The translations under genes and the position numbers were made by a program. Of a stretch of 64,000 nucleotides of DNA, positions 1,339 through 43,556 are shown one piece after another; the stretch's first letter is position 1; every line of letters begins with the position of its first letter. The notes below the pieces were generated by a model. The model did no database searches. It was not told where the DNA came from and saw only the letters and a list, made by a program, of their open reading frames with translations. Source of the stretch: Deltaproteobacteria bacterium (GTDB lineage Bacteria; Desulfobacterota; Deferrimicrobia; Deferrimicrobiales; Deferrimicrobiaceae); the NCBI GenBank assembly GCA_016218975.1, contig JACRCO010000053.1:15523-79522 (forward strand), in the 5' to 3' direction.

Positions 1339-4300
1339 ATGCAGATGGGAACGTTCACCGGATTGGATCATGCCATGTCGAAACGAAAGCGACGGGGGTG
1401 GACAGACCCGGTCATGCCCTTGTGCCTCGTACTTCTCTTTCTGTCGGTTGCAACAGCGCACGCACAGACAGGCATCTTCTGCGGGCCGACGGGAAGCGAA
1501 GCGATCCGCACCGACAAGTACGAATACCAGCCCGGCGAAGATGTCTACATAACCGGCACGGGCTTCCAGCCGCGCTGCGACGTATACGTCCGTGTGACGC
1601 GACCCGACGGGAAGGTCATGAAGGGCGACGGCACAACAACGCCGGGGATGGATATCGCAACAACCGACGATTCGGGAAATTTCGTCTCCGTATATGTCCG
1701 CCAGGGCAATTCCATCTCCGGGGAACACGTGGTCGATGTTCTGGACGGCGAAATAAACGTCGTCTCGTACTCCATCTTTTACAATCCCGAGCCTCCTGCG
1801 CCTCTCGCATGCCCCTTTACGGTCGATCCTTCGATCCCCGCGGACAACCTGGACGCGAGCACCTTCAAGACGATACAGTCCGCCGTCACCTATCTGCCCA
1901 ACCCCGGACCCTGCACGATCGAAGTGCTCCCCGGAACGTACGACGAGTTCGTAAACCTCGTAACGAAAAATACCGCCGCGGCCGACGAATCGCAGAGGAT
2001 CACGCTCGAAGCGCCGTACGGACCCGTCATCGTTGCCCCGAAAGTCCTGAATTCCGTCGGTTTCACATTGACCAATTCGAAATACATAACGATAACCGGC
2101 TTCACTGTGAAGGGAAGCAGCGTCCACAGAGGGATTTCGCTTAGCGGCGCAACCGGAAACTCCAACTGGGACATATCCATCGACGGGAATTTCCTGCAGG
2201 AAATCGGCACGCCTTCGGCCGCAGGGTCCGCCGGCATCGCGGTAGGATCGGGAAATCCGCGCACCTGGATAACCAACAACCTGATCAGGAACAACGCCAG
2301 GGGCGGCATCGACATTTCCAACGGGTCGGGCCCGACGTACATCGTCAACAACACGATTCACGGAAACGGATGGAACGGGATAACGCGGGCTTCCGGATCC
2401 GGAACCAATGCCGTGGCATCCATGATCAACAACCTGGTAACCGGCAACGGAGCCGCCGCGGACGTGGCATGGGGCAGGTGGGGGATTTACCAGTCCGGCA
2501 CCGGCAACGCCGCCCAGGCGACACTCCGGAACAACATGTTTTTCTACAACGGAGCTTACTCGGGAGGTGCGTTGTCCAGCGGCGGAGACATCTCGACCGC
2601 AGGGCTGCTCGATTCCACCGATTGGGACAATTACACGACGAACGGGCGCGCTTCCAGTTCATCCAGTCCGGCGACGGGCATCGCGGGGTGCATCTTCACG
2701 GACTGCTACCCATCCCACCTCTTCACGGAAATATATTCGGACACGGTGGATTACGTCCCGCTGAAGACCGCTTCCCTGTTATCGCCCGCCGTAGACAAGG
2801 GGCTTAACTCTTTCTACGACTCGGGATATGAATGGGTTCCGGCAGTCGATCTTTACGGCGGCCCCCGCGTACTGGACGGAGACGGGAACGGGACGGCCAT
2901 CGCGGACATGGGTTATTGCGAGGCTCCCGGAACCGATACGGCCCCGCCGGATACGATCATCGACAGCGGGCCTTCGGGGAGCGTAAATACGACATCGGCG
3001 ACTTTCACTTTCCATGCGACGGAACCCGGCAGCACGTTCCTGTGCAGCCTGGACGGCGGCGCGGAAGCCGCCTGCAACACCCGCTCCGCGAGCTACGGCG
3101 GCTTGACGGAAGGCAGCCACACTTTCTCGGTCCGGGCGACCGACGGTTCGGGAAACGCGGACCCGGATCCGGCGATCCGCACATGGACGGTCGATACGAC
3201 GCCTCCCGACACGATTATCGACACCGCTCCTCCATCGCCGGGAGGAGATACCGCCGCCTTTACGTTCCGCGCGACCGAGAGCGGAAGCACGTTCGAGTGC
3301 GGGATCGACGGCGGGCCGTTTACCGCCTGCACCAGCCCGAAATCGTATTCCGGACTGGCGGACGGCGGCCACAACTTCCAGGTGCGCGCAAAGGATCCGG
3401 CAGGCAACACCGACGCTTCGCCCGCCGTTTTTACCTGGACGGTGAACAACTTCCCCGATACTTTCATTACGATAAGTCCCCCGGCTATTTCCGGCAGCGG
3501 CAGCGCCGCATTCTATTTCACCGGGACCAAGGCGGGATCCAGCTTCGAGTGCAGCCTCGATGCCGCCGTTTTTGCGCCCTGTTCGAGCCCGGCAACCTGG
3601 TCCGGCTTGCAGGACGGCAGCCACTCGTTCTCCGTCAGGGCGATCGACGGAGCGGGCAAGATCGATCCGACTCCCGCAGCTTTCTCCTGGACGATCGACA
3701 CGGTTGCGCCGGACACGATCATCGACAGCGGCCCGGCCGATCCGGCCAACCTGCTGAGCGCGACCTTCACGTTCCGCTCGACCGAAGCCGGCGGCACGTT
3801 CGATTGCAGCCTTGACGGGGAAACGTTTTCAGCGTGTTCAAGCCCTAAAAGCTACATCGGTCTCGCTTCGGGGCCCCATACCTTCCAGGCAAGGGCAAAG
3901 GACGCGGCGGGCAACGCCGATCCATCGCCCGCCGTATCGAGCTTCAACTGGAGCGTCGACACGTCCACACTGACGGTCGTGACGGACGTGACGAAAACCT
4001 ACCAACCATATAACCAGGTGATTTACCTGACGGCCGCGATCAGTTCCTCCGCCGGACAGGTGAACGAAGGAAACGTGGTCTTCACGGTTAGGAACGCGTC
4101 ATCCACCGTGTTGGGGCCGATAACCTCGCCGCCGGTTTCCGGGGGAATCGCCACGACTTATACTATCCTTCCCGCCGGCACGCCTGCGGGCATCTACACT
4201 ATGGAAGCCAGGTACAGCGGCGGCCCTACATTCAAACCAGGCGTCGGGAACGGCGTACTGATCGTCAACCCGTGGCCCGCCACGATCACGTTGAGCAACC

Positions 4301-6523: not shown

Positions 6524-7426
6524 CTACTCGACGATCGTGAACGCCTCGACCCGGTTGTTCCCACGGTCCGCGATGAAGACGTTGCCGATTTCGTTGACGC
6601 ACATGTGTGCGGGGTAGCGGAGAAAGCCGTCTTTCCATCCCATGCTCAAACGCCGTCCGCGCACTGCGCCGTCTTGCCCGAGGATAAGAATGCCGCCGCC
6701 GTTCTGGTCCACCAGGTAGATGTTGCCCCTCCCGTCCGCGGCGATCGAAACCGGGAAATACGCGTCCTCCTTCAGGCTGGCCGATAACGGCAAAACGGCC
6801 GCGGAATCTTTCGCCGCCTTGTACACTCTCCCCTGCACGCTGTCTACCAGGAGGATGTTCCCGCCCGAATCGACGGCAAGATCGGAGAAGAAACCGTACT
6901 CCTTCGGGAACGGGATCTGGCGCTGCATCTTGCCCGCGGGATCGAGCACCAGTATCCGGGCTGAAAACACGTCGAGAACGAAGAGGTTGTCGTTTTTATC
7001 GATCCGGAAGCTCCTCGGCACGACAGCGCCTTGGACATCGCCCGAAACGGCGATGTACCCCTGGAACTCGCCCGAGGGAGAAATGCGGGCGATCCTGCGC
7101 ACCTTCCCGTCGAGAACGAAGATCTCACCCCTGGAATTCGCCTCCGCCCGGATGGGATTGGGCAATTGGGGCAGAACGATTTCGGCTCCCGGGGTCCAGC
7201 TCCCTTCCGACATCGCGTACCGCAGGATCCGGCCGTTCCCGGTATCGGCTACAAGCAGGGATCCGCCCCTGCAGCCGACGCCTTCGGGAAGCTTGATCCC
7301 CGCTCCCTTGCCGTCCACGTAAACTGGAGCGTTCATCCTGAATTTGACGGCCTCCGCGGCATGGCCGTCGGCGCCCGCGGCAAGGAGCACCGCCGCGAAC
7401 AGGGCCGCTTTCGGTATATTCCGCAT
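6524..7426 (-). CDS. NHL-repeat protein, secreted
   Basis: ORF 6524..7690 trimmed to ATG 7426 (MRNIPKAALFAAVLLAAGADGHA signal peptide). Repeated NHL-like blades (GNIYLVDQNGGGILILG, GNVFIADRGNNRVEAF). Confidence 0.8.
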   Translation of the reverse strand: MRNIPKAALFAAVLLAAGADGHAAEAVKFRMNAPVYVDGKGAGIKLPEGVGCRGGSLLVADTGNGRILRYAMSEGSWTPGAEIVLPQLPNPIRAEANSRGEIFVLDGKVRRIARISPSGEFQGYIAVSGDVQGAVVPRSFRIDKNDNLFVLDVFSARILVLDPAGKMQRQIPFPKEYGFFSDLAVDSGGNILLVDSVQGRVYKAAKDSAAVLPLSASLKEDAYFPVSIAADGRGNIYLVDQNGGGILILGQDGAVRGRRLSMGWKDGFLRYPAHMCVNEIGNVFIADRGNNRVEAFTIVE

Positions 7427-7431
7427 CCTGG

Positions 7432-8703
7432 TCACCTCTTGTATTTCTCGTGGCACTGAACGCAAAGATCCATCTTTATGTCGTAATGCACGAACCGCTT
7501 GTGCCCGGAGCCGTGGTTGCTGTGGCAGCTCTCGCAATCCATGCCGAGATTCCTGTTCCGCTTGTCGACCACCTTTTCGCCGATGGGATGGCTTGAGTGC
7601 TTCTGCCAGTCGTGGCACGCGCCGCACACGTTGATCGTGCTCGCGTTGTCCATAAGGAAAACGGAATTGGATGAGTGCGGCCTGTGGCACTTGGTGCAGT
7701 TACCCTCCTGAACGGGCTTGTGCTTTGTGAGGGATTTCTCCTGCTTCTCGATGGTATCGCGGTGGCATTCGCCGCACAGGGCCAGTTGGGGGCCTTTAAG
7801 AAGTGCGCTTTCCTTCGAGGCGTGCGGGTTGTGGCAATTCCCGCATGAGTTCCTGTCAAGCACGGGCCAGTGCATCCGGTTCCTGCCGAACGTCTCGTTC
7901 ATCATGTTGTTGTGGCATCCCCGGCAAAGTTCGTACCCGGCCTTCCTGGTCTTCAGCGCATCGGGGGAAGCCGCATCCTGGTGGCACTGGCTGCACATTT
8001 TATTGACGACCGGCTGGTGCCCTTTCCCGAGGAACATCCCCCGGCTGCCGGACCCGTGCGGGTCGTGGCACGATGTGCACCGCGATTTCGCCACGGGATA
8101 TCCCATATGCTGCTTTCCGAAGGATGGGGTTTCCGTCCTGTGGCATTTGACGCATATGCCCGGGACGTCTTCCTTGAGCAATGCCCGGGCATTAGATGAC
8201 GCATGGGGGTTATGGCAGTTGAGGCATCCCTTCTCCACGGGACTGTGCTTGAATTTGTTCCCGGCCACCGCCTTCGCGACGCTTTCATGGCAGCCGAAGC
8301 ACAGCTCGTTGCCCGCCCGCAGAAGGTTGTTCCTGTTCGCGGCCGCATGGGGGTCATGGCATTTTACGCAATTCCCCTCGACCGCCGGCCTGTGGGCGCT
8401 CGGCGCCTTGTCCGGAACGATCCCGTCGTGGCAGGAAAAACAGATCTTCTTCACGTCGTCCGCAAGGAGCTTTCCATGGGTGGAAGTGTGCGGATTGTGG
8501 CAGTCGGAGCAATCTCCCTTCTTTACCGGCGTGTGGAGAAACGGGAGCTTAAGCTTGTCCTTGAAGGTTTCGTGGCAGGTCACGCAGACTTTACCTTTCG
8601 CCCCCGGCTTGAGGCGGAACTTGTCCTGGGAGTGCGACAGGGAGACCGCCCCCAGGGATACGATCGCAAGGAGAACCAGTGCGAATTTGGTTCGAAGCGT
8701 CAT
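7432..8703 (-). CDS. Multiheme cytochrome c, 16 CxxCH motifs
   Basis: ORF trimmed to ATG 8703 (MTLRTKFALVLLAIVSLGAVSLS signal peptide). I counted 16 CxxCH motifs with regular c7-like spacing. Confidence 0.9.
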   Translation of the reverse strand: MTLRTKFALVLLAIVSLGAVSLSHSQDKFRLKPGAKGKVCVTCHETFKDKLKLPFLHTPVKKGDCSDCHNPHTSTHGKLLADDVKKICFSCHDGIVPDKAPSAHRPAVEGNCVKCHDPHAAANRNNLLRAGNELCFGCHESVAKAVAGNKFKHSPVEKGCLNCHNPHASSNARALLKEDVPGICVKCHRTETPSFGKQHMGYPVAKSRCTSCHDPHGSGSRGMFLGKGHQPVVNKMCSQCHQDAASPDALKTRKAGYELCRGCHNNMMNETFGRNRMHWPVLDRNSCGNCHNPHASKESALLKGPQLALCGECHRDTIEKQEKSLTKHKPVQEGNCTKCHRPHSSNSVFLMDNASTINVCGACHDWQKHSSHPIGEKVVDKRNRNLGMDCESCHSNHGSGHKRFVHYDIKMDLCVQCHEKYKR

Positions 8704-8716
8704 GTCTTCTCCTCTG

Positions 8717-10702
8717 TCATCGCTTTTCCGCGATATGGCATTCGTCGCAGGACCGGCCGGCGAAAGGCGCGTGCACATTTTCCTTGAAGAACTTGGGGTC
8801 CTTCGAAGCGTGCGGATCGTGGCAACTGCGGCAGTCGATCGCCGCCGGGTCTATATTCAGATGCGCCTTGCCGAAGGACGCATCCTTCACATTGTGGCAC
8901 TCGCCGCACAGCGCCTGCACGGGCTGCGACAGGAGAGCCGCCTGGCCGGAGTAGTGAGAGGCATGGCACCGCAGGCAGTCGCGTACGGCCGGGGAGTGGC
9001 CCTTTTCCTTCTGCATCTTCTCCTTCAGATTCCTGTGGCAGGTAAGGCACAGATCGGGAGATTCCACGAGCAGAAGCTTCGAAAGCTTCGACTTGTGCGG
9101 GCTGTGGCATTTTGTGCACTCTCCGCCCGATACCGGCTTATGCCCGCTTTTCCCGGCTTTCAACCCGTCCTTCAGGTCCGAGTGGCACTCGAAGCATACC
9201 TTGTCCTGCTTCGCGACGATCATCCCCGCGATGTTCGACGCGTGAGGATCGTGGCAGGTCAGGCATTCCCCGCCCTTGAAGGGGTCGTGGACCGTGCCCC
9301 CGGCGACCTCTTTCATCAGGTCTCCGTGGCAGTTCGCACAGAGGGCGGATCCGGCCTTGCGCACCAGTTTCTTTTCCTCCGATCCGTGCGCGAAGTGGCA
9401 CGCTGTGCAGTTGCCTATCATTACCGGCCGGTGGATGTTTCGCTTGAGGAAGTTCGACTCCGAGTCGGAGTGGCACCCGTAACAGACCTTGTCGGTCCGG
9501 TCTTTGAGGATCGCCGGAAGATCCGACCCGTGCGAATCGTGGCAGGATGCGCAATCCCCCTTGGCGAACGGCTCGTGCCGTGTTTTCGCTTTCTCAGCAG
9601 TCCTGACCTTCGCATGGCAGGAATAGCAAAGTTCCCCTACCCCTGCGGAAAGAAGTCCCTTGTTCTTCGCTGCGTGGGGCTTATGGCAGGAAAGGCACCC
9701 CTTCCCTTTATCGACCGCGGCGTGGGGCCTCGAAACCGTTTTCCCCTTTTCGGCGTGGCATTCCACGCAGAGCCCGTTCCCTTTCCTGGCAAGGAGTTTC
9801 GGGTTTACGGAAGAATGGGGATCGTGGCAGGATGTGCACTCGCCCTCCTTGAAGGGATTGTGCAGCACCGTTCCGTCCGCCTTCAGCTTCGCCTCGTCAT
9901 GGCACTGGTAGCAGAGCTTGCTCCCCTTCTCCGTCGCCGCGAAGGGCTTTTCGGACGTCGGTGACGGATGGCATGCATCACAGCTTTTTTCGACGACGGG
10001 GTTGTGGGCGCTCGCTTTCATCAGCTTCGGCCGGGAAGAGGAGTGCGGGTCGTGGCAACCTGTGCAGGAGGCGGACTCCACGGGATAGTTCCCGTGCGCT
10101 TTCCTGAATCCCCCCTTTCCCGCGTCGTGGCAGGAAAGGCAAAGAGGCGTCTTCGCCTTCACGAGCAGGTCGTTCTCGCCGGAGCCGTGCGGATTGTGGC
10201 AGGCGCGGCACCCCTCCTTTTCGAGCACGGCATGCTTCACATTCTGCGTGTACGCCTCTTTCTTGTGGCACTGGAAGCAGGCTTCCGATCCTTCCGCTTT
10301 CAGCAGGTGGCTTCCCTGGGAGGCGTGCGGGTTGTGGCAGGAGGTGCATTTGCCGGTTTTCAACGCCGTGTGGACCTTGGGGCGGTTCAACCCGACCTTT
10401 TCCTTCGCGTGGCATGCGTAGCAGATCTCGTTCCCTTCCTTTTTGAGGAGGAGCTTGGGGACGATCCCGTGACGAAGATGGCAGTCCTCGCACTTCCCCT
10501 GCTTGACGACGGCGTGGACGTCCTTCATCGAGAGATACTTGTCCGCGAACTTCTTGTGGCAATCGAGACATCCCTTCCGCTCGAACTTCCGTTGCTGCGC
10601 CCACGAGGAACCCTGGTGGAAAAGTGCCGCAGCCCCTCCAAGGAGCAGGAAAATTCCAAGGATGGTCAAAATCCTTTTTCGAAAGGCTGTCCTCATACGC
10701 AC
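8717..10702 (-). CDS. Multiheme cytochrome c, 26 CxxCH motifs
   Basis: 661-aa ORF with a signal peptide (RILTILGIFLLLGGAAALF). I counted 26 CxxCH motifs. It sits 14 bp upstream of the 16-heme gene. Confidence 0.9.
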   Translation of the reverse strand: MRMRTAFRKRILTILGIFLLLGGAAALFHQGSSWAQQRKFERKGCLDCHKKFADKYLSMKDVHAVVKQGKCEDCHLRHGIVPKLLLKKEGNEICYACHAKEKVGLNRPKVHTALKTGKCTSCHNPHASQGSHLLKAEGSEACFQCHKKEAYTQNVKHAVLEKEGCRACHNPHGSGENDLLVKAKTPLCLSCHDAGKGGFRKAHGNYPVESASCTGCHDPHSSSRPKLMKASAHNPVVEKSCDACHPSPTSEKPFAATEKGSKLCYQCHDEAKLKADGTVLHNPFKEGECTSCHDPHSSVNPKLLARKGNGLCVECHAEKGKTVSRPHAAVDKGKGCLSCHKPHAAKNKGLLSAGVGELCYSCHAKVRTAEKAKTRHEPFAKGDCASCHDSHGSDLPAILKDRTDKVCYGCHSDSESNFLKRNIHRPVMIGNCTACHFAHGSEEKKLVRKAGSALCANCHGDLMKEVAGGTVHDPFKGGECLTCHDPHASNIAGMIVAKQDKVCFECHSDLKDGLKAGKSGHKPVSGGECTKCHSPHKSKLSKLLLVESPDLCLTCHRNLKEKMQKEKGHSPAVRDCLRCHASHYSGQAALLSQPVQALCGECHNVKDASFGKAHLNIDPAAIDCRSCHDPHASKDPKFFKENVHAPFAGRSCDECHIAEKR

Positions 10703-10723: not shown

Positions 10724-12415
10724 CTACCTGGCGAGGGGTTTCACGATCCTGTCGAGCTTGTCGCCGGTGGCATAAATCTTCACTTCCGATGCCTTCCTCA
10801 GCTTCTCTTCCCAATCCCGAAGCGTCCGTTGGCGTTTATCGAGGAACAATTTCTGCCGGATGCCGTCTTTAACCGATTCGTATTTCTGCGGCTGCGGGGG
10901 AAAAACTTCACGGACGTACAACACGTAAGCGGGTCCTTCCGCTTCCGAATAAATCCGGAAATCCCCGCCGGTCGCCCCCGAGACCGCCTTTCGCGCTCCT
11001 TCCGGCAATTCCGTCACGATCATCGTCCCGCCGAATCGAAGCAGGTTTTCCGCCTTGGCCGGATCCACCCTGCCGTCGGCGTTCTCTTTCGTCCAAATGA
11101 AATCCGCGCCCTTCCGCAGCTTTTCGACAGCGTCCTCCGCATCCGCCCTCTTGTGAAAGGCGATGCTGTCCATCCGCATCATCTCCGGAGTCGTGTATTC
11201 CGCGATATGACCCTTCAGGTACTCCCTGATTTCCGCTTCGTCCACCTTGATTTCCGGGTCGATCGCTTTCCTGACGAACGTCCCGAACACCAGTTCGTTC
11301 CTGTAGCCATCGACCCGGGTCTTAAAAAACTCCGCCCGGTCCAGTTTTTTCAGTCTCGCCTCCTTGAGCGCGACCCGCCTTGCGAGGATCTCGTCGAGGA
11401 CAACAGGTTTCCTTTTGTTTATTTTCTTTTTCTCCGCCGCCTTTTCCGCACCGTGAAAGAATTTCCGCTGAAGCGCCGTCGTAAGGTCGGCCACCGTGAC
11501 GGGCGCCTCTCCCTTCACCTTCGCCACGACGCGCTTGTCCTCGAGCAGTTTTTCGAACCCCGGCTGAATCGAGTCGTAATCGAGGCCATCGAGGATCTTA
11601 CCGTTCACCTTCACATATTTTTTCTTGAGCTCTTCCGAGTATTTGCCGAGAACGACGACCCTTTTTGCCTTCAAGGCTTCCATTCCGGCCTTCTCTTTCG
11701 CCGCCGGATCGTCAGGGTAACGTACCCCCTCGAACTTGAGCATCGAGTAATGGTTCCCCACCTTTATCAGAGGGCTTATTTCGCCGGCCTTCATGGAAGA
11801 AACGGCGGCCGCCACATCGGGAGACAACGATTCGAATTTCATGTACCTGCCTTCCAGGCTCCCTTTCGCCTCTCCGGCGTCGAGCATCCGTTTCGCGGCG
11901 GATTCGAAATCCCTTCCGGACTTCACCTCGGCTTCCAGCCGCTTTCCTGTCTCCTCTTTCTCCATGAGCACGGACTTGACCTTGACCTCCTTGACTGTTT
12001 CGCGGTAAAGCCTGTCGATTTCCTTCTTGTCCCCCTTCTTCACGTTTTTAACCCGTTCTCCGTACAACATTCCTCTCAACGACTCTTCCTCGTAAGCCTT
12101 TACCGCCGCCGTCACCTCCGTCAATGAGTCCAGGCCTATATTCCGCGCTTCCTGCAGGATGAGCTTCGCGTTTATTATCCGTTCCAGTATCGCCGACGGG
12201 CTGGAGTGCGCCTTCGCCGAATTGTCGGACACTCCTTCGTGAATGGATGCAAGCACGTTGTAGAATTCATGGAGAGTGACCGGCTCGCCGTTGACCGAGG
12301 CAAGGGCTGGTTTTCCGCCGATTTCAGGCAGCTTCGGGTCTGCGGCGCCCCCTTCGATCGCGGCGAATGCCAGGAAACACACCACGATCGTCAACAGGAA
12401 ACATATTTTTCTCAT
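10724..12415 (-). CDS. SurA-N-domain periplasmic chaperone-like protein (SurA/PpiD family)
   Basis: ORF trimmed to ATG 12415 (MRKICFLLTIVVCFLAFAAIEG signal peptide). Lys/Glu-rich chaperone-like sequence with SurA-N-like motifs. No clear parvulin signature seen. Confidence 0.65.
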   Translation of the reverse strand: MRKICFLLTIVVCFLAFAAIEGGAADPKLPEIGGKPALASVNGEPVTLHEFYNVLASIHEGVSDNSAKAHSSPSAILERIINAKLILQEARNIGLDSLTEVTAAVKAYEEESLRGMLYGERVKNVKKGDKKEIDRLYRETVKEVKVKSVLMEKEETGKRLEAEVKSGRDFESAAKRMLDAGEAKGSLEGRYMKFESLSPDVAAAVSSMKAGEISPLIKVGNHYSMLKFEGVRYPDDPAAKEKAGMEALKAKRVVVLGKYSEELKKKYVKVNGKILDGLDYDSIQPGFEKLLEDKRVVAKVKGEAPVTVADLTTALQRKFFHGAEKAAEKKKINKRKPVVLDEILARRVALKEARLKKLDRAEFFKTRVDGYRNELVFGTFVRKAIDPEIKVDEAEIREYLKGHIAEYTTPEMMRMDSIAFHKRADAEDAVEKLRKGADFIWTKENADGRVDPAKAENLLRFGGTMIVTELPEGARKAVSGATGGDFRIYSEAEGPAYVLYVREVFPPQPQKYESVKDGIRQKLFLDKRQRTLRDWEEKLRKASEVKIYATGDKLDRIVKPLAR

Positions 12416-12494
12416 GTCATTGCCTTCCGTGGGATACCCGGGATTGTCGACTGTGTGCATTTTAACAAAGAATGATTCTCGGTATTGAAATAAA

Positions 12495-12541: not shown

Positions 12542-13708
12542 TCAGAAAGTTTCCGCCGCATTCCCGTCCTCGTCCATCATCCTCTCGACCACGGCGCGCG
12601 TCATGCCGGATGCCAGCGCATATGCGGTATTGACTCTCCCCTGGTTGAAGAAGATCACCCGGTCGTCGCCGCGGTTGAAACTTATCGACGACCATACGAC
12701 CTGCCTTGTTTTCGTGTCGTATATGCGGACCGTAAAGTTAACCTTCGGATTCCCTCCCGGGCCGCTATAATCGTCGTACTCGTAAACGTTACCCGACATG
12801 ACCAGATCGACACCGAGCATTTCACGCAGCAGGTCCGCCTGGGGGATGGACAGGCCCCCTTCCATGATCGTCCTCGACATGAGCAATGCCTGCCTCACCA
12901 CACCTGGCTCCGAAACTTCGAAAGATCCATGCTCCGAAAGTCTTCTCACCAAATGCAGGGCCATGATGTCGCCTGCGTTTCTCCGTGTGCTGTCGTTCGC
13001 AAGGGGAAGGACGGCGATCGACTTTTTTTCTCCTTCGAATGCACGGTTCCCGAGTCCCCTGAAGATATCCTTCGGCCGATACTTGTCCATCTCCTCTTCA
13101 TGCTTTTCAAGGGCTAACGCGCCTTGCGGAACGCTTCGCGGATTTTTTCCCGCAAGCCGATCCGCAAGTGAATCGACGACTTCGTCCCTGACCTTGTTCC
13201 ACAGCGCCCATGGATCATTGATCATGCCGAGAAGAAGGAAGCCCGGAGCATCGTTTCCCGCCATCGCCACGCCTTCCATCCAGAGGACCGCCGGCATCCC
13301 TGCGGTGGAAACCAGCCTCGCCGTCAAGGCCATTTTCGGCGGCGCCGCCTCATCGTATTGGTCGAGCGAGACGAAAAGGACGGCTTTCGTCCCTGTCTCG
13401 GAAAGGAAATCCTTTCCAAGGGCTTCGGTCAGCCCGCCGGCGTACCGGACCCGGTGCCTCTCCATGAATTTTTCCATCGAATCGTCATCCAGGAGAAGGA
13501 AGCCTTTCGACCGCAATCCCTCCTTCAGGGATTTCTCGATCCCCTTGAGCGGAACGGACGTTCCCGACAGGTTTTCCATCGGCATTACCGCAATCCGGAA
13601 GTCGCCGGCGGGGGCTCCCGTTTTCACGGGAGAAGCGGCGCAACCCGAAAACGCAAGCAACCCGATGAATATGACGACGGGGTATTTACTTGCCGAAAAG
13701 TTTGTCAA
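12542..13708 (-). CDS. Two-domain lipoprotein, CsgG/LpoB/DUF799-superfamily-like, tandem internal duplication
   Basis: Signal peptide plus Cys (LLAFSGCAAS). Two copies of the module IAVMPMENLSGT / IAVLPLANDST ... VDLVMSGNVYEY ... TRQVVW. Confidence 0.7.
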   Translation of the reverse strand: MTNFSASKYPVVIFIGLLAFSGCAASPVKTGAPAGDFRIAVMPMENLSGTSVPLKGIEKSLKEGLRSKGFLLLDDDSMEKFMERHRVRYAGGLTEALGKDFLSETGTKAVLFVSLDQYDEAAPPKMALTARLVSTAGMPAVLWMEGVAMAGNDAPGFLLLGMINDPWALWNKVRDEVVDSLADRLAGKNPRSVPQGALALEKHEEEMDKYRPKDIFRGLGNRAFEGEKKSIAVLPLANDSTRRNAGDIMALHLVRRLSEHGSFEVSEPGVVRQALLMSRTIMEGGLSIPQADLLREMLGVDLVMSGNVYEYDDYSGPGGNPKVNFTVRIYDTKTRQVVWSSISFNRGDDRVIFFNQGRVNTAYALASGMTRAVVERMMDEDGNAAETF

Positions 13709-14267
13709 GCAGTTCTTCCACCGCCTTCTGCGTCACGAAATTCATCGGTTCTCCGCCCCCGCCGAAAAGGCGGTCCGCCGTCGTCACCCCCCCCTTGGTG
13801 GTCGCCGCCGTCCAGACCACCTTTCCCGTCTGCGCTTCCATCATCTGGAGGCTCACCGAGATGACGTTCGCACTTGTCGATCCGGACCTCACTTCGCCGT
13901 ATTCCGAGACCGTTCCGGTTATCACCACGTCCGCGTTCAGGTTCTTGGCGAACTTGACGATCTCCTCGGCGGTGGGCGTCGCCGGACGCTCCACATTGGC
14001 CCGGGAAATTCCGCGCGACACTTCCCCGGGAGGGATGACGTAGAGGCCGCCCGTCGCCTGGAGCATCGTCATGAAGACGTCGCGCACCCTGTCGGCCGCA
14101 AGCTGCTCCCTCGTAAGGTTCGTGAACGGCAGGACGGCCACGGCCTGGATGGATCCGAAATCCATGTTCGGATCCCGGAACACGTTATGCGACGTCCCGG
14201 CGCACCCCGTCGCGACGAGCAGAAACAGAAAGACCGCCCTCAGGCGCCGCATCGGCTTTTCTTTCAT
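13686..14267 (-). CDS. Lipoprotein, CsgG/LpoB/DUF799-superfamily-like
   Basis: MKEKPMRRLRAVFLFLLVATGCAGT lipoprotein signal. Hallmark AVAVLPFTNLT...ADVVITGTVSEY...TGKVVW. Confidence 0.7.
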   Translation of the reverse strand: MKEKPMRRLRAVFLFLLVATGCAGTSHNVFRDPNMDFGSIQAVAVLPFTNLTREQLAADRVRDVFMTMLQATGGLYVIPPGEVSRGISRANVERPATPTAEEIVKFAKNLNADVVITGTVSEYGEVRSGSTSANVISVSLQMMEAQTGKVVWTAATTKGGVTTADRLFGGGGEPMNFVTQKAVEELLDKLFGK

Positions 14268-14335
14268 GATCCGGGTCCTCCCCCCATTAATATTACACTG
14301 CCCGCCTCAGGCCGGCCCGCATTCATCATGCGGGT

Positions 14336-16525
14336 TTAGAACCCCACATGGAACGTCCCGCCGTATGACTTCGTTGCGGTGGACAGCGCAGGACCTACGG
14401 TCTTCAGGTCCTGGTATGAAATGTCGAGGTACGATCGCGACGAGATGTTCCATCGCAAGCTCGGGATGACGGACCTCTCCCGCGAGTTGTCCTCCGGCCG
14501 TACGGTTTCGTTGTAAAAGAAGTTCAGGTGCAATGTCCCGTCCGGGAACGGCGCCCAGTTGGCGGTGTAGTTCCTGATGCGCCTGTCGCTTTTTTCGCCC
14601 CCCTCGTCCCGGTGCTCTATCCGGTAGGAACCGAACAAATAAATGGTCCGGACGGGCGTCAACCCCGCATTGGCCTCCCACGACCGGGTGATGTCCTTCC
14701 TTTCGCCGATCGTCTCCCCGCCTTTCGTTTTCGCCGAGGAATCGGTGAAGCCCAGGTTGAAGACGGCAACCGGATGCGGAACCAGGGTCGCGCTCGCGTT
14801 GACCTGGGTCTGGTCCGTCCTCCTCCCCGTGCCCGAAATCGACCGGCTCGCCCCTCCTCCGAGGTTCGCGTCGATCCCTTCGTACAATCTTGCGCTGTTG
14901 TAGAGATACAGGGAATTGGCGGTGCTGTTGCTTCCCGCCGTCGTTTCATCGCTTCCGCTGAAGACCAGGCTGTGCCGCAGCGTATCGTAGGGCACTGCCG
15001 CCACCGAGGCGGTGTACAAGTAGGCTACCCTGGTGCCCGCCCTCTCCTTTCCGTCTTCACGCGAAATCCGCGCCCTCCCCGAGAATACCCTCGAGTACTG
15101 CTGCTGGTACGCCAGCCCGTTGGAAACCGTGTAGATGGACGGGGACGGCTCCGCCTTTCTCAAAAAATAGGAAAACTCGTGGTAAAGGGAGGGCGAATCG
15201 AGGATCCGGGTCCGGATATCCAGGTTGTACAGGTGAGAGGTCGAGACGGTTTTGCCCGTGATTTCGGACGCCGGCCTTCGGACTTCCGCCTGGAGCTCCG
15301 TGACCAGGATATCCGGGAACCTGGTGGCGTTCGGTGTCGCAAGCGACAGGGGCGAGACGACAACCTTGATGAACCGCGCCGTGACGTTTAAGAAACGTAT
15401 CTCGAACCGCTGGAGAAAGGCGTTGAACGTCGCGGGAGAAACGGTCTGGCGCAATACCCAGTCCTGGTTGTTGGAACTGGTATAGATCCTCCAGGAAAAC
15501 GAGTCGGCGACCTCGGCGGCGTCCTGGCCGCCCGCAACGACCGTCACGAGCATGGTGTTGACTTCCGTATCGGCGCCGAAGTCCAGTCCCATGTTCCTCT
15601 GATTCGCATCTTCGCCCGCGGACGGGAGGCCGAGATCGATTCCGGCGCTTGCGACCAGGTCGCCGTTGGTGAGGAGCGTATTCGTTTCGAGCCGGACGTT
15701 TTCCGGGGTATTGCTTATGCCGGACAGGCCCGTTGCGAAGAAGATGCGGAACCCCACTTCCCCACCACCGCCGACGGCGGTTCTCACTTCATCGCGAACG
15801 AAGCTGTAATCGGAATTCACGGAAACGCGGCGCTGCCACAACCGGTCGGAATACACGATCTTCCCCGTATGGTTTACGTCTTCGACGGTCGTGTCGGTCA
15901 GGCGGTCCTCGCGGTCCCCCACGGAAAGCTGGTAGCGCAGGAACAGCGGGGTGACCGGACGGTATTGGGAAGTAACCCCGAACCGGCTGTCGGTCGTGTC
16001 CGTGACCCGGCGTTCCTTGTCGAAATTGTCGGTCCGGAAATACTCAAGCTTGACGTCGGGAAACCCGTCCGGCTTCCACTGGAACGCGGAAGACCAGGTT
16101 TCCCTCACCGTCGCGAACGGCGCAAGCCCGGAAGTCTTCCGTTTCTCCTCGCTTCGGTTGTATCCCGCGTCGGCGGAATAGAGCGGGGTGCGGAAATTGA
16201 GGCCGACGAACGGCCTGATGCGGGTGCTCGTCGAATCGGTCTCCACACCGCCCGATTCGAAAGCCGAATCCTGCTTCTCGAACAAACCTCCCGCAAGAAG
16301 TCCCAGGTTGGGATAGATCTTTCTGTCCAGGGTGATGCTGTACTTTTGCGTGAAGGAATCGGCGCTTGTCCTGGCGGACTGGCCCGCGGCATCCACGTTC
16401 GTGGTGTCGGTCCTGTTGATGCCGGCCTCGAGGTACCCGCTCAAGCCCTCAGCCGAGCACGTTCCGGCGATGAGACCAGAGACAGCCATCAGCGAAAGGA
16501 AAACAAGGAGGGCGCGCGATTCCAC
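14336..16525 (-). CDS. Predicted outer-membrane beta-barrel protein (about 730 aa), start probably GTG 16525
   Basis: C-terminal ...SYGGTFHVGF ends in an aromatic residue, as in OMP barrels. Signal peptide RALLVFLSLMAVSGLIAGTCSA. Ser/Thr/Asp/Arg-rich alternating-strand composition. The ATG at 16606 would overlap the upstream gene by 76 nt. GTG 16525 has a GGGGGAG RBS and lies 5 nt after the upstream stop. Confidence 0.6.
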   Translation of the reverse strand: MESRALLVFLSLMAVSGLIAGTCSAEGLSGYLEAGINRTDTTNVDAAGQSARTSADSFTQKYSITLDRKIYPNLGLLAGGLFEKQDSAFESGGVETDSTSTRIRPFVGLNFRTPLYSADAGYNRSEEKRKTSGLAPFATVRETWSSAFQWKPDGFPDVKLEYFRTDNFDKERRVTDTTDSRFGVTSQYRPVTPLFLRYQLSVGDREDRLTDTTVEDVNHTGKIVYSDRLWQRRVSVNSDYSFVRDEVRTAVGGGGEVGFRIFFATGLSGISNTPENVRLETNTLLTNGDLVASAGIDLGLPSAGEDANQRNMGLDFGADTEVNTMLVTVVAGGQDAAEVADSFSWRIYTSSNNQDWVLRQTVSPATFNAFLQRFEIRFLNVTARFIKVVVSPLSLATPNATRFPDILVTELQAEVRRPASEITGKTVSTSHLYNLDIRTRILDSPSLYHEFSYFLRKAEPSPSIYTVSNGLAYQQQYSRVFSGRARISREDGKERAGTRVAYLYTASVAAVPYDTLRHSLVFSGSDETTAGSNSTANSLYLYNSARLYEGIDANLGGGASRSISGTGRRTDQTQVNASATLVPHPVAVFNLGFTDSSAKTKGGETIGERKDITRSWEANAGLTPVRTIYLFGSYRIEHRDEGGEKSDRRIRNYTANWAPFPDGTLHLNFFYNETVRPEDNSRERSVIPSLRWNISSRSYLDISYQDLKTVGPALSTATKSYGGTFHVGF

Positions 16526-16529
16526 AACG

Positions 16530-17966
16530 CTACTTCTCCCCCATGACCGCCGCCTGGTAAGGGTCTTCGCCGACGTCGATCTCCGCCGCCGTCCCCTTCC
16601 CGACAAGCTGCAAAATCCTGAGGCGGCCGCTCTCAGGGAGTACGGAAAGGAGCCTGTTCCCGTCCCCGTCGATCGTCATGTACGACACTTCGCCTGCCCC
16701 CTGCAGGAAATCGACGGGAAGGAAGGAAAACGGATCGAAGACGTCTATTTCGCCGGTGAACCGTTTCGCAAGGTACACGAGGTCCGTGCGCTGGTCGACT
16801 TTAAGGGCGGCTCCGCCGGCGCCTACGTTGATCCTTCGCACGGTAGACAAGGTAAGCGGATCCACGACGGTCAAAAAGGGGGAATCCCGGTGGAGCACGT
16901 AGAGACGGCTTCCTGCCCTGTTGAACTGTCCCCTCACCGGCCCCGACTCGGTGGCGACCGTCGCCGCGACCGCTTCCGCTGCGATGTCGATGACCGATAT
17001 GCTGTTGGCAATCGCACTGAAGACATACGCCTTTCTTCCGTTGCGGTCGATCAGGATGGACTGCGGCCCCGCTCCGACCTGCAATCTCTTCCTCTCTATC
17101 AAGGACGCGCTATCGATAATGCTCACCGTGTTGGAGCCGTTGTTCGCGGAGAGCAGCGTCTTTCCGTCGGGGGTCAGCGCCAGCTCCTGCGGGTTGTCCC
17201 CCGCGGTCAGCCGCTGCCGGTCGATGACGGCTGCCTCGAGCAGGTCGACGGCTTCGACCGCGTCCTCCCCCTGGAGCGCGACATATGCCTTTCGGGAAGC
17301 CGGATCGACCACGATCCCCGCCGGAGATGCGCCGGTCGGTATGACACCTATTACCTGGCCGGTGTTCTTGTCGAACATCGTTACGGCGTTCTCCCGGCGG
17401 CCGGTAACAAGACCGATTGTCCCTATAGGGATTTTCCCGGGGACCGCCCCGGTAAACGAAGGAGCGAAACGGAACCCCTCCCGGACGGACTCCGCGTAAA
17501 GAAAACGCAATGCAAGCACCGTCGCTTTCTTCCCGGCCACGGCGAAGGGCATCGGGACCCGGGGTGAATCCTCAACCGGTTTGAGCGCAGTTTCTCCTTC
17601 CTCCCCCATGAGAGTCGCGCTCTTTAGCTGTAGAGTGAACCCCTCGTACTGTCCGGGAGGCATATCCCCCGATGCGAGGAGCCTCTCCCTTTTCATTTCC
17701 CTGCCGCTTAGATCTTTCACGTGGAGAGTGAGAGGAACCGTTCCTCCTCCCTGGCGCACGGCGGAAATCCCTTCCAGTCGAAAGGAGAGCCTGCCGGCGT
17801 CCTGGGGAAAGGTCTGGAGATATATGTACAGCGCCCCAGAATCGCCCAGTGGCGGTTTCACCAGTGACGGTCTGGGCTGGCAGGAGGAAAAGACCAGGGA
17901 AAGGGCGACCAGGGCCGCCGGGAGAGCCGCGAATCCATTCCGCCGCCCGGATCCGTTCTCCGTCAT
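16530..17966 (-). CDS. YVTN-family beta-propeller repeat lipoprotein
   Basis: Signal plus Cys (LVFSSCQ). Repeated ~40-aa blades (KAYVALQGEDAVEAVDL, GKTLLSANNGSNTVSIID, RKAYVFSAIANSISVIDI, SRLYVLHRDSPFLTVVD). Confidence 0.75.
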   Translation of the reverse strand: MTENGSGRRNGFAALPAALVALSLVFSSCQPRPSLVKPPLGDSGALYIYLQTFPQDAGRLSFRLEGISAVRQGGGTVPLTLHVKDLSGREMKRERLLASGDMPPGQYEGFTLQLKSATLMGEEGETALKPVEDSPRVPMPFAVAGKKATVLALRFLYAESVREGFRFAPSFTGAVPGKIPIGTIGLVTGRRENAVTMFDKNTGQVIGVIPTGASPAGIVVDPASRKAYVALQGEDAVEAVDLLEAAVIDRQRLTAGDNPQELALTPDGKTLLSANNGSNTVSIIDSASLIERKRLQVGAGPQSILIDRNGRKAYVFSAIANSISVIDIAAEAVAATVATESGPVRGQFNRAGSRLYVLHRDSPFLTVVDPLTLSTVRRINVGAGGAALKVDQRTDLVYLAKRFTGEIDVFDPFSFLPVDFLQGAGEVSYMTIDGDGNRLLSVLPESGRLRILQLVGKGTAAEIDVGEDPYQAAVMGEK

Positions 17967-18126: not shown

Positions 18127-19395
18127 TCAGTCCTTCGCGTGGCACTTGTTGCAGAACACACGCTGATACGTCGCAAACTGTGTTACCGGCCTGTCATAGT
18201 ATGCCGTCTTCCACTCGGCCATCGTCCGGCCGCGGTGCTGGAGCGGTGCACGGGAACTGGTCATGGCGGGGTTGTCGCTTCCCAGGTAATTCGAAGCGAC
18301 TGTCATGAATTCATAGCCGTTGTCGTAGCGAAGCATTTCCGCCACGCCGGAGGCATGCGCCCTGTGGCAGGACAGGCACATGACCTGGTCGGTGCTTCCC
18401 GGACCCGCTTTGAGGGCGGAGGAGCCGTTGTTTCCGGCAAGAGCCGCAAGGGCCGTGTAATCGCCGCTGTTCGTCGCGAACGGAGCAAGGGACGAGAACG
18501 CGGTCGCCGAGGTTCCGGTCAGGTCGCCGGATTTTACATAGGAGTTGTAGTTGGCTGCAATGGTGCTGCCGAGCGATTCATCGACCGGGTGCACGTAGTT
18601 GCCGCTGGAATGCATGGCGCCGTGGCAGGTCGCGCACCACTGCCCCCAGGTTACGTGCCCGCTGGCCGTGGCGACACCGTATGCTACGCGGACCTGGTTG
18701 TCGGCCTCGGTCTGGTTGTAGGACGACGGGGCCTTGGCGGCGGGAACGCCGTTGAAGGTTATCCCGTCTTTCGTGTATCCCGCGCCGGCCAGGAGCCTGT
18801 ACACGCCGACCGCCTCGGTCGCCGTAGGCTCGTTGCTGGTGCCGTTATAGGAACCGGAAGCCTTTATGGGTGCTCCGGTCTTCGCGATCGTGCCGCTCTG
18901 GAGTCTCCTGTACTGGCCGTGAGGGTCATGGCAGGAATTGCAGGCGAGCTGCGCGGAGGGGAATGTCCCGCCCGGGGCCGCGGCATTGATCGGATCCACT
19001 ACGTATCCGAAGTCGCCCGCGATGATGTTGTGGCCGTGGATCGCGCCATCCTCGGTATTGGTAGTACCCTGATACGTATAGGTGTAGGTCTTCCTCAGCC
19101 AGCCGAAGTCGCCGCCGGGAGTCCGGTTCACGGGCGACACGCCGTCGCCCATGGCGGAGGCGGTGGTGCTGATATGGTAGCTCGACAGCGTGGGCCCGTC
19201 GTGGCAGGTAAGACACGTGGAGCTCTGGTCCCCTCCGACAAGCAGGAAGGACCCGCCAGCCTTGGGGCTGTGCATGCTGTGGCAGCCTTCGCACTCGGCG
19301 ACGCCGCCCGAATGGAACGCGTAAGCCGTGGTGCCCATTCCGACCGCAAAAAGCGCGGCCGATAGAACGATAAGTGTGATCTTTGCCGCTTTCAT
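18127..19395 (-). CDS. omcS: OmcS-family hexaheme c-type cytochrome (nanowire-type)
   Basis: The mature N-terminus AFHSGGVAECEGCHSMHS matches my recollection of G. sulfurreducens OmcS (FHSGGVAECEGCHTMH). Conserved TPGGDFGW, GHNI, CNSCHDPHGQYRR, CLSCHRAHASG, YQRVFCNKCHAKD. Six CxxCH motifs. RBS GGAGGAGAA. Confidence 0.85.
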   Translation of the reverse strand: MKAAKITLIVLSAALFAVGMGTTAYAFHSGGVAECEGCHSMHSPKAGGSFLLVGGDQSSTCLTCHDGPTLSSYHISTTASAMGDGVSPVNRTPGGDFGWLRKTYTYTYQGTTNTEDGAIHGHNIIAGDFGYVVDPINAAAPGGTFPSAQLACNSCHDPHGQYRRLQSGTIAKTGAPIKASGSYNGTSNEPTATEAVGVYRLLAGAGYTKDGITFNGVPAAKAPSSYNQTEADNQVRVAYGVATASGHVTWGQWCATCHGAMHSSGNYVHPVDESLGSTIAANYNSYVKSGDLTGTSATAFSSLAPFATNSGDYTALAALAGNNGSSALKAGPGSTDQVMCLSCHRAHASGVAEMLRYDNGYEFMTVASNYLGSDNPAMTSSRAPLQHRGRTMAEWKTAYYDRPVTQFATYQRVFCNKCHAKD

Positions 19396-19417
19396 TTCTC
19401 CTCCTTCAGTTCTCCGG

Positions 19418-19500
19418 CAGCCCGGCCGTCCTTGCCTAACGCAAGCACCCGTTGGCTTTGTGCCCCCGCCTTGCGACAGGTTTACCTTTTTCGGAGGAGT
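19418..19500 (-). promoter_or_regulatory. GEMM-I (c-di-GMP/cGAMP class) riboswitch candidate in the omcS-like leader
   Basis: Minus-sense GGUAAACC-UGUC[GCAA]GGCGGG-GGCACAAAGCC aligns with the GEMM-I P1 (GNRA tetraloop) and the conserved GGGACGCAAAGCC region. A P2 hairpin GCUUGC-GUUAG-GCAAG follows. The RBS follows directly. Confidence 0.65.
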
Positions 19501-19599: not shown

Positions 19600-20589
19600 T
19601 CATTGCCGTCCCCCTTCCGTTCCGTAGGAAGACAGAGAAAAAACTGAAACCCCCCGGTTTCTCAACTGCGTCACGTACAGCTTTCCCGAATTGCCCACGG
19701 CCACTTCGTTCGGCCGAATCAGGTTCCAGGGTTTCTCTCCCCGGTATCCGAACTCCTGGACGAACCTGAATTCCCTGTCGAACACCATCACGACGCTGCG
19801 AAGCCGCTCGACCACCAGGTAATTGCCTTCGTCGTCGACCGCTATGCCGCTTATGACTCCGAACATTCCGGGAGCGGAACCGGACTTGCCGAAAGAGACG
19901 ATCAGCTTCCCTTCCGGCGACACTACGTACGCCTTGAAATGCACGGCGACCGTGAACAACATGTTCCCCGAACGATCCACGCTGAAACCGAAGATTTCGG
20001 TGGTCAGCCTGTCCTTCTCGGGAACATCGACGATCCGGCCGAAGTCATAACCTTTTTGGAATTTGCCGTTTCGATCGGTGACTATCGCCTGCATCCTGCT
20101 CGTGCTCACCAGGAGCAATTCCCCGCCGCGCATAAACATGCGGTTCGGGCAGAAACCATAAAAATCGCCCGGAAGACCGCCGATCCTGACCGTACCTTTC
20201 AGATCTCCGCGGTAATTGCACTTCGAAATCCAGTAATCGGGACCGTCTGCGGGGTGGCTGAAATCGAAGGAAAGGAGAAGCAGGTCACCCTTTTCATCGA
20301 CGGCGATATCGTAAATCGTGCCGAGCGCCCGATTATCGCCGAACCAGAACACTTCCATGCCGGTTTCGTTGAAAACCTTTACGATTCCGCGGTCAAGGAC
20401 GTATACCTCATCCCTTGCCCGGTCCACGTGAAGCCTTACATCGCTATAAGGAATCTTTCCCGAAAAATTAGAAAGGTTGTAAAGGTACGCGGACTTTACG
20501 TTCGTTGCGAACGCCGGGAAGGAACAAACCAGCAGAAGAAAGAAAGCCGGCAGAATCCTGATCGCTTGTTTTTTGTTGTAACTCCTCAT
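19600..20589 (-). CDS. NHL-repeat protein, secreted
   Basis: Signal peptide MRSYNKKQAIRILPAFFLLLVCSFPAFA. NHL-like repeats (GNYLVVERLRSVVMVFD, GKLYVTQLRNRGVSVF). Confidence 0.8.
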   Translation of the reverse strand: MRSYNKKQAIRILPAFFLLLVCSFPAFATNVKSAYLYNLSNFSGKIPYSDVRLHVDRARDEVYVLDRGIVKVFNETGMEVFWFGDNRALGTIYDIAVDEKGDLLLLSFDFSHPADGPDYWISKCNYRGDLKGTVRIGGLPGDFYGFCPNRMFMRGGELLLVSTSRMQAIVTDRNGKFQKGYDFGRIVDVPEKDRLTTEIFGFSVDRSGNMLFTVAVHFKAYVVSPEGKLIVSFGKSGSAPGMFGVISGIAVDDEGNYLVVERLRSVVMVFDREFRFVQEFGYRGEKPWNLIRPNEVAVGNSGKLYVTQLRNRGVSVFSLSSYGTEGGRQ

Positions 20590-20817: not shown

Positions 20818-22086
20818 ATGAAAACAATTTCGGACACCCCCTTATCGGCGGCATTCGTCATGACTGCACTTCTGGTTGCCTTCCCCATTCATCGAGCGGC
20901 AGCGTTCCACGCAGGAGGCGTGGGTGAGTGCTCAGGATGCCACTCCTCCCACAGCGCGGGGGCAAACAATCCCTTCCTTCTCGTTTCGGGCGACCCGAGT
21001 TCCACATGCCTCATGTGCCACATGCAGGCAGGAGAAACAGCCCCGAATGCGCATCACGTGGCAACCGACGAGTCGGACATGCCCTCAGGATCCCCTCCCG
21101 TACAGTTGACCCCCGGCGGAGATTTCGGATGGCTTAAGAAAAATTACAAATGGAATGCGGCCGACGGAGGGCCGGGCGGACAGAGCGCCGGCGAGCGGCA
21201 CGGGCATAACATCGTGGCAGCCGTTTACGGATTCGCGGCGGACACCACGCTGACGGCCGCCCCGGGGGGCGCCTACCCCGCAGCCGGTCTGTCCTGCACA
21301 AGCTGCCATGACCCCCACGGAAGATATCGCCGCCTGGCGGACGGAACCATACAATCCAAGGGATCGCCGGTAGTCGATTCTGGGTCGTACAAAACCAGCC
21401 CGGATCCCACGGAGACGACTGCGGTCGGCGTTTACAGGATGCTCGGCGGCAAGGGATACTCAAGGCCCGGGGCAAGCGAAACGTTCAACTTCGATCCTCC
21501 CGCGGCTGTCGCCCCGCCGGATTACAACCGGTCCGAAAGCGGTTCCGACACGCGGGTCGCCTACGGCGGCGGCATGTCGGAATGGTGCACGAATTGCCAC
21601 GGAGCCTACACCGGGAACCGCAACGCGCCCGGCCACCCGGCTGGAAGCCTCGTCAAGATGACGCCTCGCGCCGTCTCGAATTACAACGCATACGTGTCCT
21701 CCGGAAACGTCACCGGAACTTCTTCGACCGCCTACACGTCCCTCGTGCCGTTCGAAATGGGCACTTCCGATTACGCTCTCCTGAAAAAAGCGGCATCCAC
21801 GGACGGTTCGATGAAAGCGGGGCCGGATACCAACTCCAACGTGATGTGCGTCTCCTGCCACCGGGCGCACGCCTCCGCATGGGACCAGGCGGCCCGCTGG
21901 AACATGAAATCCGAATTCATCCTTTACAACGGAGACTATCCGGGCGCGGACAGGACCGATCTGCCCTTACGCATGTCACAGGGTCGCACGAAGACGGAAA
22001 CCAGGCGCGCTTACCATGAAAGACCGCCGATCGCTTTCGCGAGCTACCAGCGGACACTCTGCAACAAGTGCCACACCATGGATTGA
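20818..22086 (+). CDS. OmcS-family hexaheme c-type cytochrome, paralog
   Basis: AAFHAGGVGECSGCHSSHS, LTPGGDFGWLKK, GHNIVA, CTSCHDPHGRYRR, CVSCHRAHAS, YQRTLCNKCHTMD. RBS GGGAGG. Six CxxCH motifs. Confidence 0.85.
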   Translation: MKTISDTPLSAAFVMTALLVAFPIHRAAAFHAGGVGECSGCHSSHSAGANNPFLLVSGDPSSTCLMCHMQAGETAPNAHHVATDESDMPSGSPPVQLTPGGDFGWLKKNYKWNAADGGPGGQSAGERHGHNIVAAVYGFAADTTLTAAPGGAYPAAGLSCTSCHDPHGRYRRLADGTIQSKGSPVVDSGSYKTSPDPTETTAVGVYRMLGGKGYSRPGASETFNFDPPAAVAPPDYNRSESGSDTRVAYGGGMSEWCTNCHGAYTGNRNAPGHPAGSLVKMTPRAVSNYNAYVSSGNVTGTSSTAYTSLVPFEMGTSDYALLKKAASTDGSMKAGPDTNSNVMCVSCHRAHASAWDQAARWNMKSEFILYNGDYPGADRTDLPLRMSQGRTKTETRRAYHERPPIAFASYQRTLCNKCHTMD

Positions 22087-30897: not shown

Positions 30898-30919
30898 CTT
30901 TTGCGACCTTCCCTGCAGC

Positions 30920-31537: not shown

Positions 31538-31552
31538 CTTCGTACCCGCTTT

Positions 31553-33924: not shown

Positions 33925-33935
33925 CCTCCGCCGAC

Positions 33936-35339: not shown

Positions 35340-35368
35340 GCCCGTGGCGATCCTCCTTCCGGGCGCGT

Positions 35369-36379: not shown

Positions 36380-36383
36380 CCGC

Positions 36384-37301: not shown

Positions 37302-37416
37302 GAACGTCGCGCCGCCAAGCCGGCGGGCGAGCCCCCGCGAGGGACACCCCGTGAGGCGTGCGTAGCCCGGCACTGTAACGGAAAATATTTTCGGAGCGGA
37401 AGACATCGGCTGTCGC

Positions 37417-43536: not shown

Positions 43537-43556
43537 TGCATCCTCCGAAGTTTTCT

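Follow-up and report, generated by a model that had tools for sequence, protein, structure and literature searches.

How do folded cytochromes that already carry their hemes get across the outer membrane and polymerise to conductive filaments of micrometre length? This is the question raised by a locus in contig JACRCO010000053.1 of a deltaproteobacterial genome, which was analysed as a 64-kb stretch of DNA (hereafter, the window). Within a run of cytochrome genes, the locus encodes a large predicted outer-membrane beta-barrel (E) followed by two lipoproteins (F and G). Gene by gene, the window reproduces the osc (OmcS-companion) cluster of Geobacter, and the locus is thus a further example of a known system. 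We consider it likely that E, F and G are homologues of OscE, OscF and OscG and that they jointly form an outer-membrane channel for OmcS-type nanowire subunits. For this reading, the gene identities, homology, synteny and predicted folds come from our own analysis, while the link to OmcS secretion comes from the literature.

In Geobacter sulfurreducens, the osc cluster comprises GSU2501-GSU2493, which encode OscC, D, E, F, G, H, I, J and K (Shen et al. 2025, Cell Chem Biol 32:239, PMC11845295, PMID 39818215). PMC13194489 equates GSU2501 with OscC, GSU2495 with OscI and GSU2494 with OscJ. An eight-gene block, GSU2500-GSU2493, which follows omcS/GSU2501 on its downstream side, has also been described, with G. 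luticola among its carriers and GSU2495 as a protein of ~70 kDa with 26 hemes (bioRxiv 10.1101/2025.11.06.686851).

A Geobacter locus for comparison was reached by taking the OmcS sequence from a PDB alignment, using it to find ‘c-type cytochrome OmcS [Geobacter]’ (94% identical to the 6EF8 chain) and moving from there to its genomic locus, L083. The genes of L083 encode, in order, OmcS and OmcT, then a spermine-synthase-like protein, an OmcS-like protein of 437 amino acids (aa), a 482-aa YncE propeller, a protein of 725 aa without a Pfam match and an LpoB/GNA1162-like lipoprotein. Four proteins of the window match their positional counterparts in L083 over their full length: E matches the 725-aa protein in the OscE position (36% identity, E=8e-150), F the protein in the OscF position (63%, E=6e-52), the propeller D the protein in the OscD position (44%, E=4e-141), and the OmcS-like cytochrome at 18127-19395 the protein in the OscC position (43%, E=1e-109). 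L083 ends inside F, so G was compared with the G-position proteins of other genomes instead, giving 43% identity in G. luticola (L039) and 37-38% in Geomonas. The G. luticola and Geomonas loci have the full S-D-E-F-G-H-I-J order, as does the window, where an OmcS-family gene stands upstream of this block of eight genes.

A preliminary description of this DNA, made from its letters alone, had taken the architecture to be undescribed. It is indeed not a classical porin-cytochrome complex, but it is also not new, because the block is the osc cluster that Shen et al. have published. What the window adds is a full and intact osc block in a Deferrimicrobium-like lineage: the contig's protein on record is ‘hypothetical protein HY896_06700 [Deltaproteobacteria bacterium]’, with relatives that include Candidatus Deferrimicrobium. 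It also makes gene-by-gene annotation possible for proteins that databases label ‘hypothetical’ or ‘TolB-like’.

The ten features of the block follow, in order of transcription. All coordinates in this text are positions in the window, and the letters D, E, F, G, H, I and J are gene labels in osc order.

19412-19495, minus strand: c-di-GMP-I-GGC riboswitch aptamer (Rfam RF03167 at 60.8 bits, with the gathering score at 59; E=6.8e-12).
18127-19395, minus strand: OmcS-family hexaheme cytochrome in the OmcS/OscC position, 422 aa, 6 CXXCH motifs (aligns over its full length with 6EF8, the OmcS filament structure, at E=3.8e-108).
16530-17966, minus strand: OscD-like YVTN/YncE beta-propeller with a lipobox-like LVFSSC (Pfam YNCE, 4.4e-16; TIGR02276, 3.4e-32).
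14336-16525, minus strand: OscE-like predicted outer-membrane beta-barrel (E), 729 aa (AlphaFold2 model, fold matches and Geobacter homology).
13686-14267, minus strand: OscF-like single-domain lipoprotein of PelC/LpoB/GNA1162 fold (F), 193 aa (Pfam LpoB, 5.9e-9; GNA1162-like, 2.1e-7).
12542-13708, minus strand: OscG-like lipoprotein (G), 388 aa, with tandem PelC-like domains at residues ~38-185 and ~229-378.
10724-12460, minus strand: OscH-like prolyl isomerase chaperone of SurA/PpiC type, probable start 12415 (Pfam Rotamase_2, 1.5e-22, and SurA_N).
8717-10702, minus strand: OscI-like 26-heme cytochrome, 661 aa, 26 CXXCH motifs (DmsE/MtrA-family TIGR03508, 370 bits).
7432-8778, minus strand: OscJ-like 16-heme cytochrome, 16 CXXCH motifs, probable start 8703 (TIGR03508, 175 bits).
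6524-7690, minus strand: NHL-repeat beta-propeller in the GSU2493 position, the eighth gene of the block, probable start 7426, 300 aa (Pfam NHL, 6.7e-14).

These features run head to tail, with coding genes spaced by -62 to +160 nucleotides. The barrel and the lipoproteins of ~190 and 388 aa are a co-directional trio at the coordinates first given, and their neighbours are also those originally named: an OmcS-like gene and a propeller on one side, and a SurA-like chaperone with 26-heme and 16-heme cytochromes on the other. Third-position GC is 0.69-0.82 in the minus-strand frames, with the mirror pattern in the long plus-strand open reading frames (ORFs) that lie over them, which marks the minus-strand genes as real and the plus-strand ORFs as high-GC artefacts. 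The RF03167 aptamer lies 17 nucleotides upstream of the OmcS-like gene and is likely the operon leader. Given this placement, the whole osc-like operon is probably under cyclic-dinucleotide control.

A genome scan with the E alignment, based on peptide patterns, yielded 80 loci that were kept, spanning Desulfobacterota, Nitrospirota, Acidobacteriota, Rokubacteria and cultured Geobacteraceae (G. sulfurreducens is not among them). Counting only loci with enough flanking sequence, E is accompanied by F in 73/75 loci, by G in 67/70 and by D in 64/66, while an OmcS-like hexaheme gene stands upstream of E in 60/62 and H occupies the OscH position in 54/62. A cytochrome with at least 20 hemes lies downstream of E in 48/59 loci, and a 16-heme ORF fills the J position in most. 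The trio is thus tightly and widely syntenic with cytochromes, a pattern that matches the ‘widespread and ancient’ machinery named in the title of Shen et al. and runs clearly counter to the lack of cytochrome synteny that the preliminary description had named among its grounds for refutation.

Some loci depart from this layout around G. The G-position ORF is very long in some genomes (850-1460 aa), G homologues with extra Y_Y_Y or PKD domains occur in databases, and ~3 kb is inserted between F and G in several Acidobacteriota loci. Loci with a long G or an F-G insertion are L003, L004, L011, L024, L032, L033 and L041 (G position), and L038, L043, L044, L052, L053, L059, L065 and L072.

Synteny also bears on the question of cargo. 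The preliminary description suggested that the trio might be a new secretion pore for the giant 26-heme and 16-heme cytochromes encoded downstream. These share an operon with E, F and G, their linkage is conserved, and a barrel of ~28-30 strands would be wide. Against this, E is linked more tightly to the upstream OmcS-like gene (60/62) than to the downstream cytochrome of at least 20 hemes (48/59), and the literature connects OscEFG with the secretion of OmcS (PMC13194489; bioRxiv 10.1101/2025.11.06.686851; bioRxiv 10.1101/2025.10.22.684050). Export of the giant cytochromes is very improbable because G. sulfurreducens OscI and OscJ are counted among the periplasmic proteins (PMC13194489). Of the original suggestion, a secretion pore is still the leading idea, but such a pore is not new and the cargo was probably wrong.

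The gene of E starts with GTG, preceded by GGGGGAGAAG, and the protein has a signal peptide and a C-terminus ending in ...TFHVGF. E matches no Pfam or NCBIfam family at E<=0.1. An AlphaFold2 model built with 18 homologues has a predicted local distance difference test score (pLDDT) of 82 and a predicted template modelling score (pTM) of 0.60, and it consists of near-continuous long antiparallel strands, ~28-30 in number, broken only at residues ~262-423. Among the fold matches listed for this model, almost all are transmembrane beta-barrels, with MtrB among the top ones, though the similarity to 6r2q_B is generic to barrels. E is accordingly predicted to be a very large outer-membrane beta-barrel, in agreement with the preliminary description, which had named a non-barrel fold as a reason to abandon its proposal.

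The break in the barrel is a beta-rich insert and the least confidently modelled part of the protein, with lower confidence than the rest. It is also the most conserved part of the OscE family, holding, within 22% of the protein's length, 37 of the 95 alignment columns that are invariant or nearly so (2.2 times the density), and it carries the family's signature peptide FSW[DRQ][IV]YTS. An even strand number (28 or 30) would mildly favour placing the insert as an extracellular loop. The family itself is compact: clustering at 50% identity gives 1402 clusters in a set of 1.84 billion representatives, and lengths of 700-780 aa predominate among the 150 best matches listed.

F and G are PelC-fold lipoproteins with an N-terminal lipidation cysteine. 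Each contains a single cysteine, located at the end of the signal peptide (LLVATGC in F, LLAFSGC in G), and no CXXCH motif occurs in E, F or G, so the lipoproteins carry no heme motif, as had been stated. The motifs originally quoted (AVLPFxNxT, GTVxEY and TGxVVW) have counterparts in F (AVAVLPFTNLT, TGTVSEYG, TGKVVW) and in the C-terminal half of G (IAVLPLANDST, GNVYEYD, RQVVW), while those in the N-terminal half of G are degenerate (IAVMPMENLSG, PAVLW). The two halves of G match each other by BLAST (E=1.3e-4), F matches the C-terminal half of G (E=1e-8), and the model of G (pLDDT 77, pTM 0.78) has two tandem alpha/beta domains with identical order of elements. The BLAST matches and the tandem-domain model together bear out the internal duplication in G that had been proposed.

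The label first given to these lipoproteins, CsgG/LpoB/DUF799-like, names related folds but not the nearest solved relative. That relative is PelC, ahead of CsgG, LpoB and GNA1162, and F has a sequence match to the PelC structures 5T11, 5T10 and 9H80 (E=2.4e-5). Family models give a mixed picture: the domain-level Pfam LpoB match passes (36.4 bits vs 22.3), the LpoB equivalog TIGR02722 is not reached (32 bits vs a cutoff of 110.6), the CsgG (PF03783) scores of the two proteins, 12.8 and 15.7 bits, fall below the gathering score of 20.8, and G scores slightly under the GNA1162-like gathering score.

Such folds could also belong to a housekeeping envelope module, either an LpoB-type activator of a peptidoglycan synthase or an exporter of Pel/curli type, which lies in a cytochrome-rich region by chance. 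The Pfam LpoB and GNA1162-like matches of F and G point that way, as do PelC and CsgG as the nearest folds. We give this reading almost no credence: the LpoB equivalog and CsgG scores fall short, the block lacks a PelB-like barrel with tetratricopeptide repeats (TPR) and has neither glycosyltransferases nor curli genes, E belongs to a compact family, and in the 80 loci of the scan OmcS-like genes and propellers flank E almost wherever the flank suffices to see them. LpoB, CsgG and Pel housekeeping roles were each rejected on family cutoffs and gene context.

How might the channel work? The literature offers an outline. Shen et al., as summarised in PMC13194489, proposed that OscH acts in folding, OscE, OscF and OscG in OmcS secretion and OscD in filament morphology, and the cargo in that published model is the OmcS-type nanowire subunit with its six hemes. 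Opinion now favours a ‘porin-like pathway’, and large barrels are encoded in the majority of OmcS and OmcE regions (bioRxiv 10.1101/2025.10.22.684050). For the present locus, we infer the cargo and a ring-on-barrel arrangement as follows. The OmcS-type subunit, encoded two genes upstream of E, would meet the OscH prolyl isomerase chaperone first. E would be the very large barrel in the outer membrane, and F (one domain) and G (two domains) would be PelC-fold lipoproteins anchored in its inner leaflet. By analogy with PelC on PelB, they would most likely form a periplasmic ring below the barrel, with their lipid tails as the anchor. Heme-loaded hexaheme subunits would then reach the surface through the E/F/G channel and polymerise there into a conductive filament. 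The conserved insert of E may be a gate, much like the plug of an usher, or a dock that holds the filament at the surface. For the published OscEFG channel, the locus thereby suggests two hypotheses about structure: that PelC-like lipoproteins form a ring below the barrel, and that the barrel contains a highly conserved inserted domain.

Several points weigh against the reading of E, F and G as an OmcS-type channel. The host is an uncultured Deferrimicrobium-like deltaproteobacterium represented by a metagenome-assembled genome and known from its genes alone. A profile of 18 E homologues found no solved-structure relative of E by sequence (the best match, E=0.26, is spurious), and the PelC-like ring is an analogy. 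The functional assignment was taken from summaries of Shen et al. 2025 in three later papers. A review calls the mechanism of secretion and anchoring ‘still speculative’ (PMC12307469), and OmcS is reportedly dispensable for some extracellular electron-transfer phenotypes (PMC13194489).

The OscI-like and OscJ-like cytochromes suggest another role for the barrel. E could be a permanent electron conduit, instead of or besides an export pore, in which MtrA-like OscI and OscJ insert or dock and so link the periplasm electrically to the OmcS filament at its base, with F and G as scaffolding. Both cytochromes match the DmsE/MtrA decaheme family strongly (the TIGR03508 scores listed above) and accompany E in most loci, and how filaments are anchored and charged is still treated as an open question in PMC12307469. 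Against these points, the sequence of E matches neither MtrB/PioB nor another porin family, and F, G and H separate I and J from E. Furthermore, I and J are on the other strand or missing in several loci (L027, L029, L054, L069 and L077). PpcA-E have been proposed to charge OmcS (PMC10954620, which does not mention the osc cluster), and the published reading is secretion (PMC13194489). We therefore regard a conduit of this kind, the main rival reading, as quite improbable, though it is compatible with export and the two need not be exclusive.

A more elaborate form of the channel is rather doubtful, but it would have consequences beyond this locus. E, F and G might be a modular ‘socket’ rather than a passive pore, both PelBC-like and usher-like: PelC domains would form a ring under the ~28-30-strand barrel, the insert would gate the pore or hold the filament base, and OscI and OscJ would dock as the electron feed. 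For example, four copies of F plus the two-domain G would give a ring of 12 domains. If this were true, the same ring-plus-barrel platform would be reused by a divergent second module in the window for a different, undescribed cytochrome polymer.

This second module (‘copy 2’) occupies 27748-38328 on the minus strand and encodes:

36384-38328, minus strand: two NHL propellers.
32167-33915, minus strand: a 582-aa barrel-like protein ending in ...RFSKSF.
31553-32167 and 30920-31537, minus strand: two single-domain PelC/LpoB/CsgG-like lipoproteins, 27-36% identical to F or to the C-terminal half of G.

The module also contains a 336-aa 6-heme cytochrome weakly related to OmcS (E=2.4e-6), a 485-aa cytochrome with 9-10 hemes and no solved relative, and a 1049-aa 42-heme cytochrome. 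In hhalign, its barrel-like protein shows no detectable relationship with E-family proteins (probability 3.6%), so copy 2 is not a simple duplicate. It resembles the OmcE-type cluster pattern of bioRxiv 10.1101/2025.10.22.684050 and may serve a different cytochrome polymer.

OmcS-family paralogues are unusually abundant in the window, which also carries other features:

1339-6423, plus strand: a 1694-aa secreted protein adjoining the cluster, with many repeated Ig-like modules (recurring ...TPPDTIIDSGP...TFTF.ATE.GSTF.CSLDG...).
19600-20589, minus strand: a weakly NHL/6-bladed-propeller-like protein between the two OmcS-like genes.
20818-22086, plus strand: a second OmcS-like hexaheme paralogue, divergently transcribed, with 6 CXXCH motifs and 47% identity to the first.
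40769-42037, 42283-43458 and 49209-50405, minus strand: further distant OmcS-like ORFs (22-26% identity by tblastn).
43556-43636, minus strand: a second riboswitch, c-di-GMP-I (RF01051, 62.2 bits), just upstream of the distant OmcS-like ORF with a tblastn match at 43458-42283.

How does the E/F/G trio compare with known systems? In the PelBC exopolysaccharide exporter, PelC forms a dodecameric lipoprotein ring on the PelB barrel (PDB 5T10, 5T0Z and 9H80). The barrels are unrelated: PelB combines TPR with a 16-strand barrel, whereas E lacks the TPR region, is much larger (~28-30 strands in the model) and has an inserted domain. In addition, the window has two different PelC-like proteins, one of them a tandem duplication, and its cargo would be a folded heme protein instead of a polysaccharide. 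No Pel synthesis genes are present here; the neighbours are cytochromes, propellers and a prolyl isomerase.

An inserted domain is also found in chaperone-usher pili, where the PapC/FimD usher barrel carries a beta-sandwich plug. There is no sequence homology between the two systems, and the chaperone here is a prolyl isomerase, not an Ig-fold protein of PapD type. CsgG, the curli channel, forms its own barrel from transmembrane hairpins, while the window has a separate barrel gene, does not reach the CsgG family model and has no curli context. The comparison with LpoB fails on the equivalog model, and there is no PBP1B context.

Porin-cytochrome complexes (MtrCAB, and OmaB-OmbB-OmcB and ExtABCD of Geobacter) are similar in that an outer-membrane barrel is encoded with multiheme cytochromes and lipoproteins and serves extracellular electron transfer, and MtrB is a top fold match of E. 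They differ in that F and G have no heme, E has no MtrB/OmbB sequence signature, and the cytochromes I and J lie three genes away from E instead of adjacent to it.

Compared with the osc cluster, the window lacks omcT, has no gene of spermine-synthase type at the OscB position (a label given by position only), and has a second, divergently transcribed OmcS-like paralogue. The order and the types of protein are the same in both: an OmcS-like hexaheme cytochrome, a YVTN propeller, a barrel of ~725 aa that matches nothing in Pfam, lipoproteins of ~195 aa and ~370-390 aa, a chaperone of PpiC/SurA type, cytochromes with 26 and then 16 hemes, and an NHL protein.

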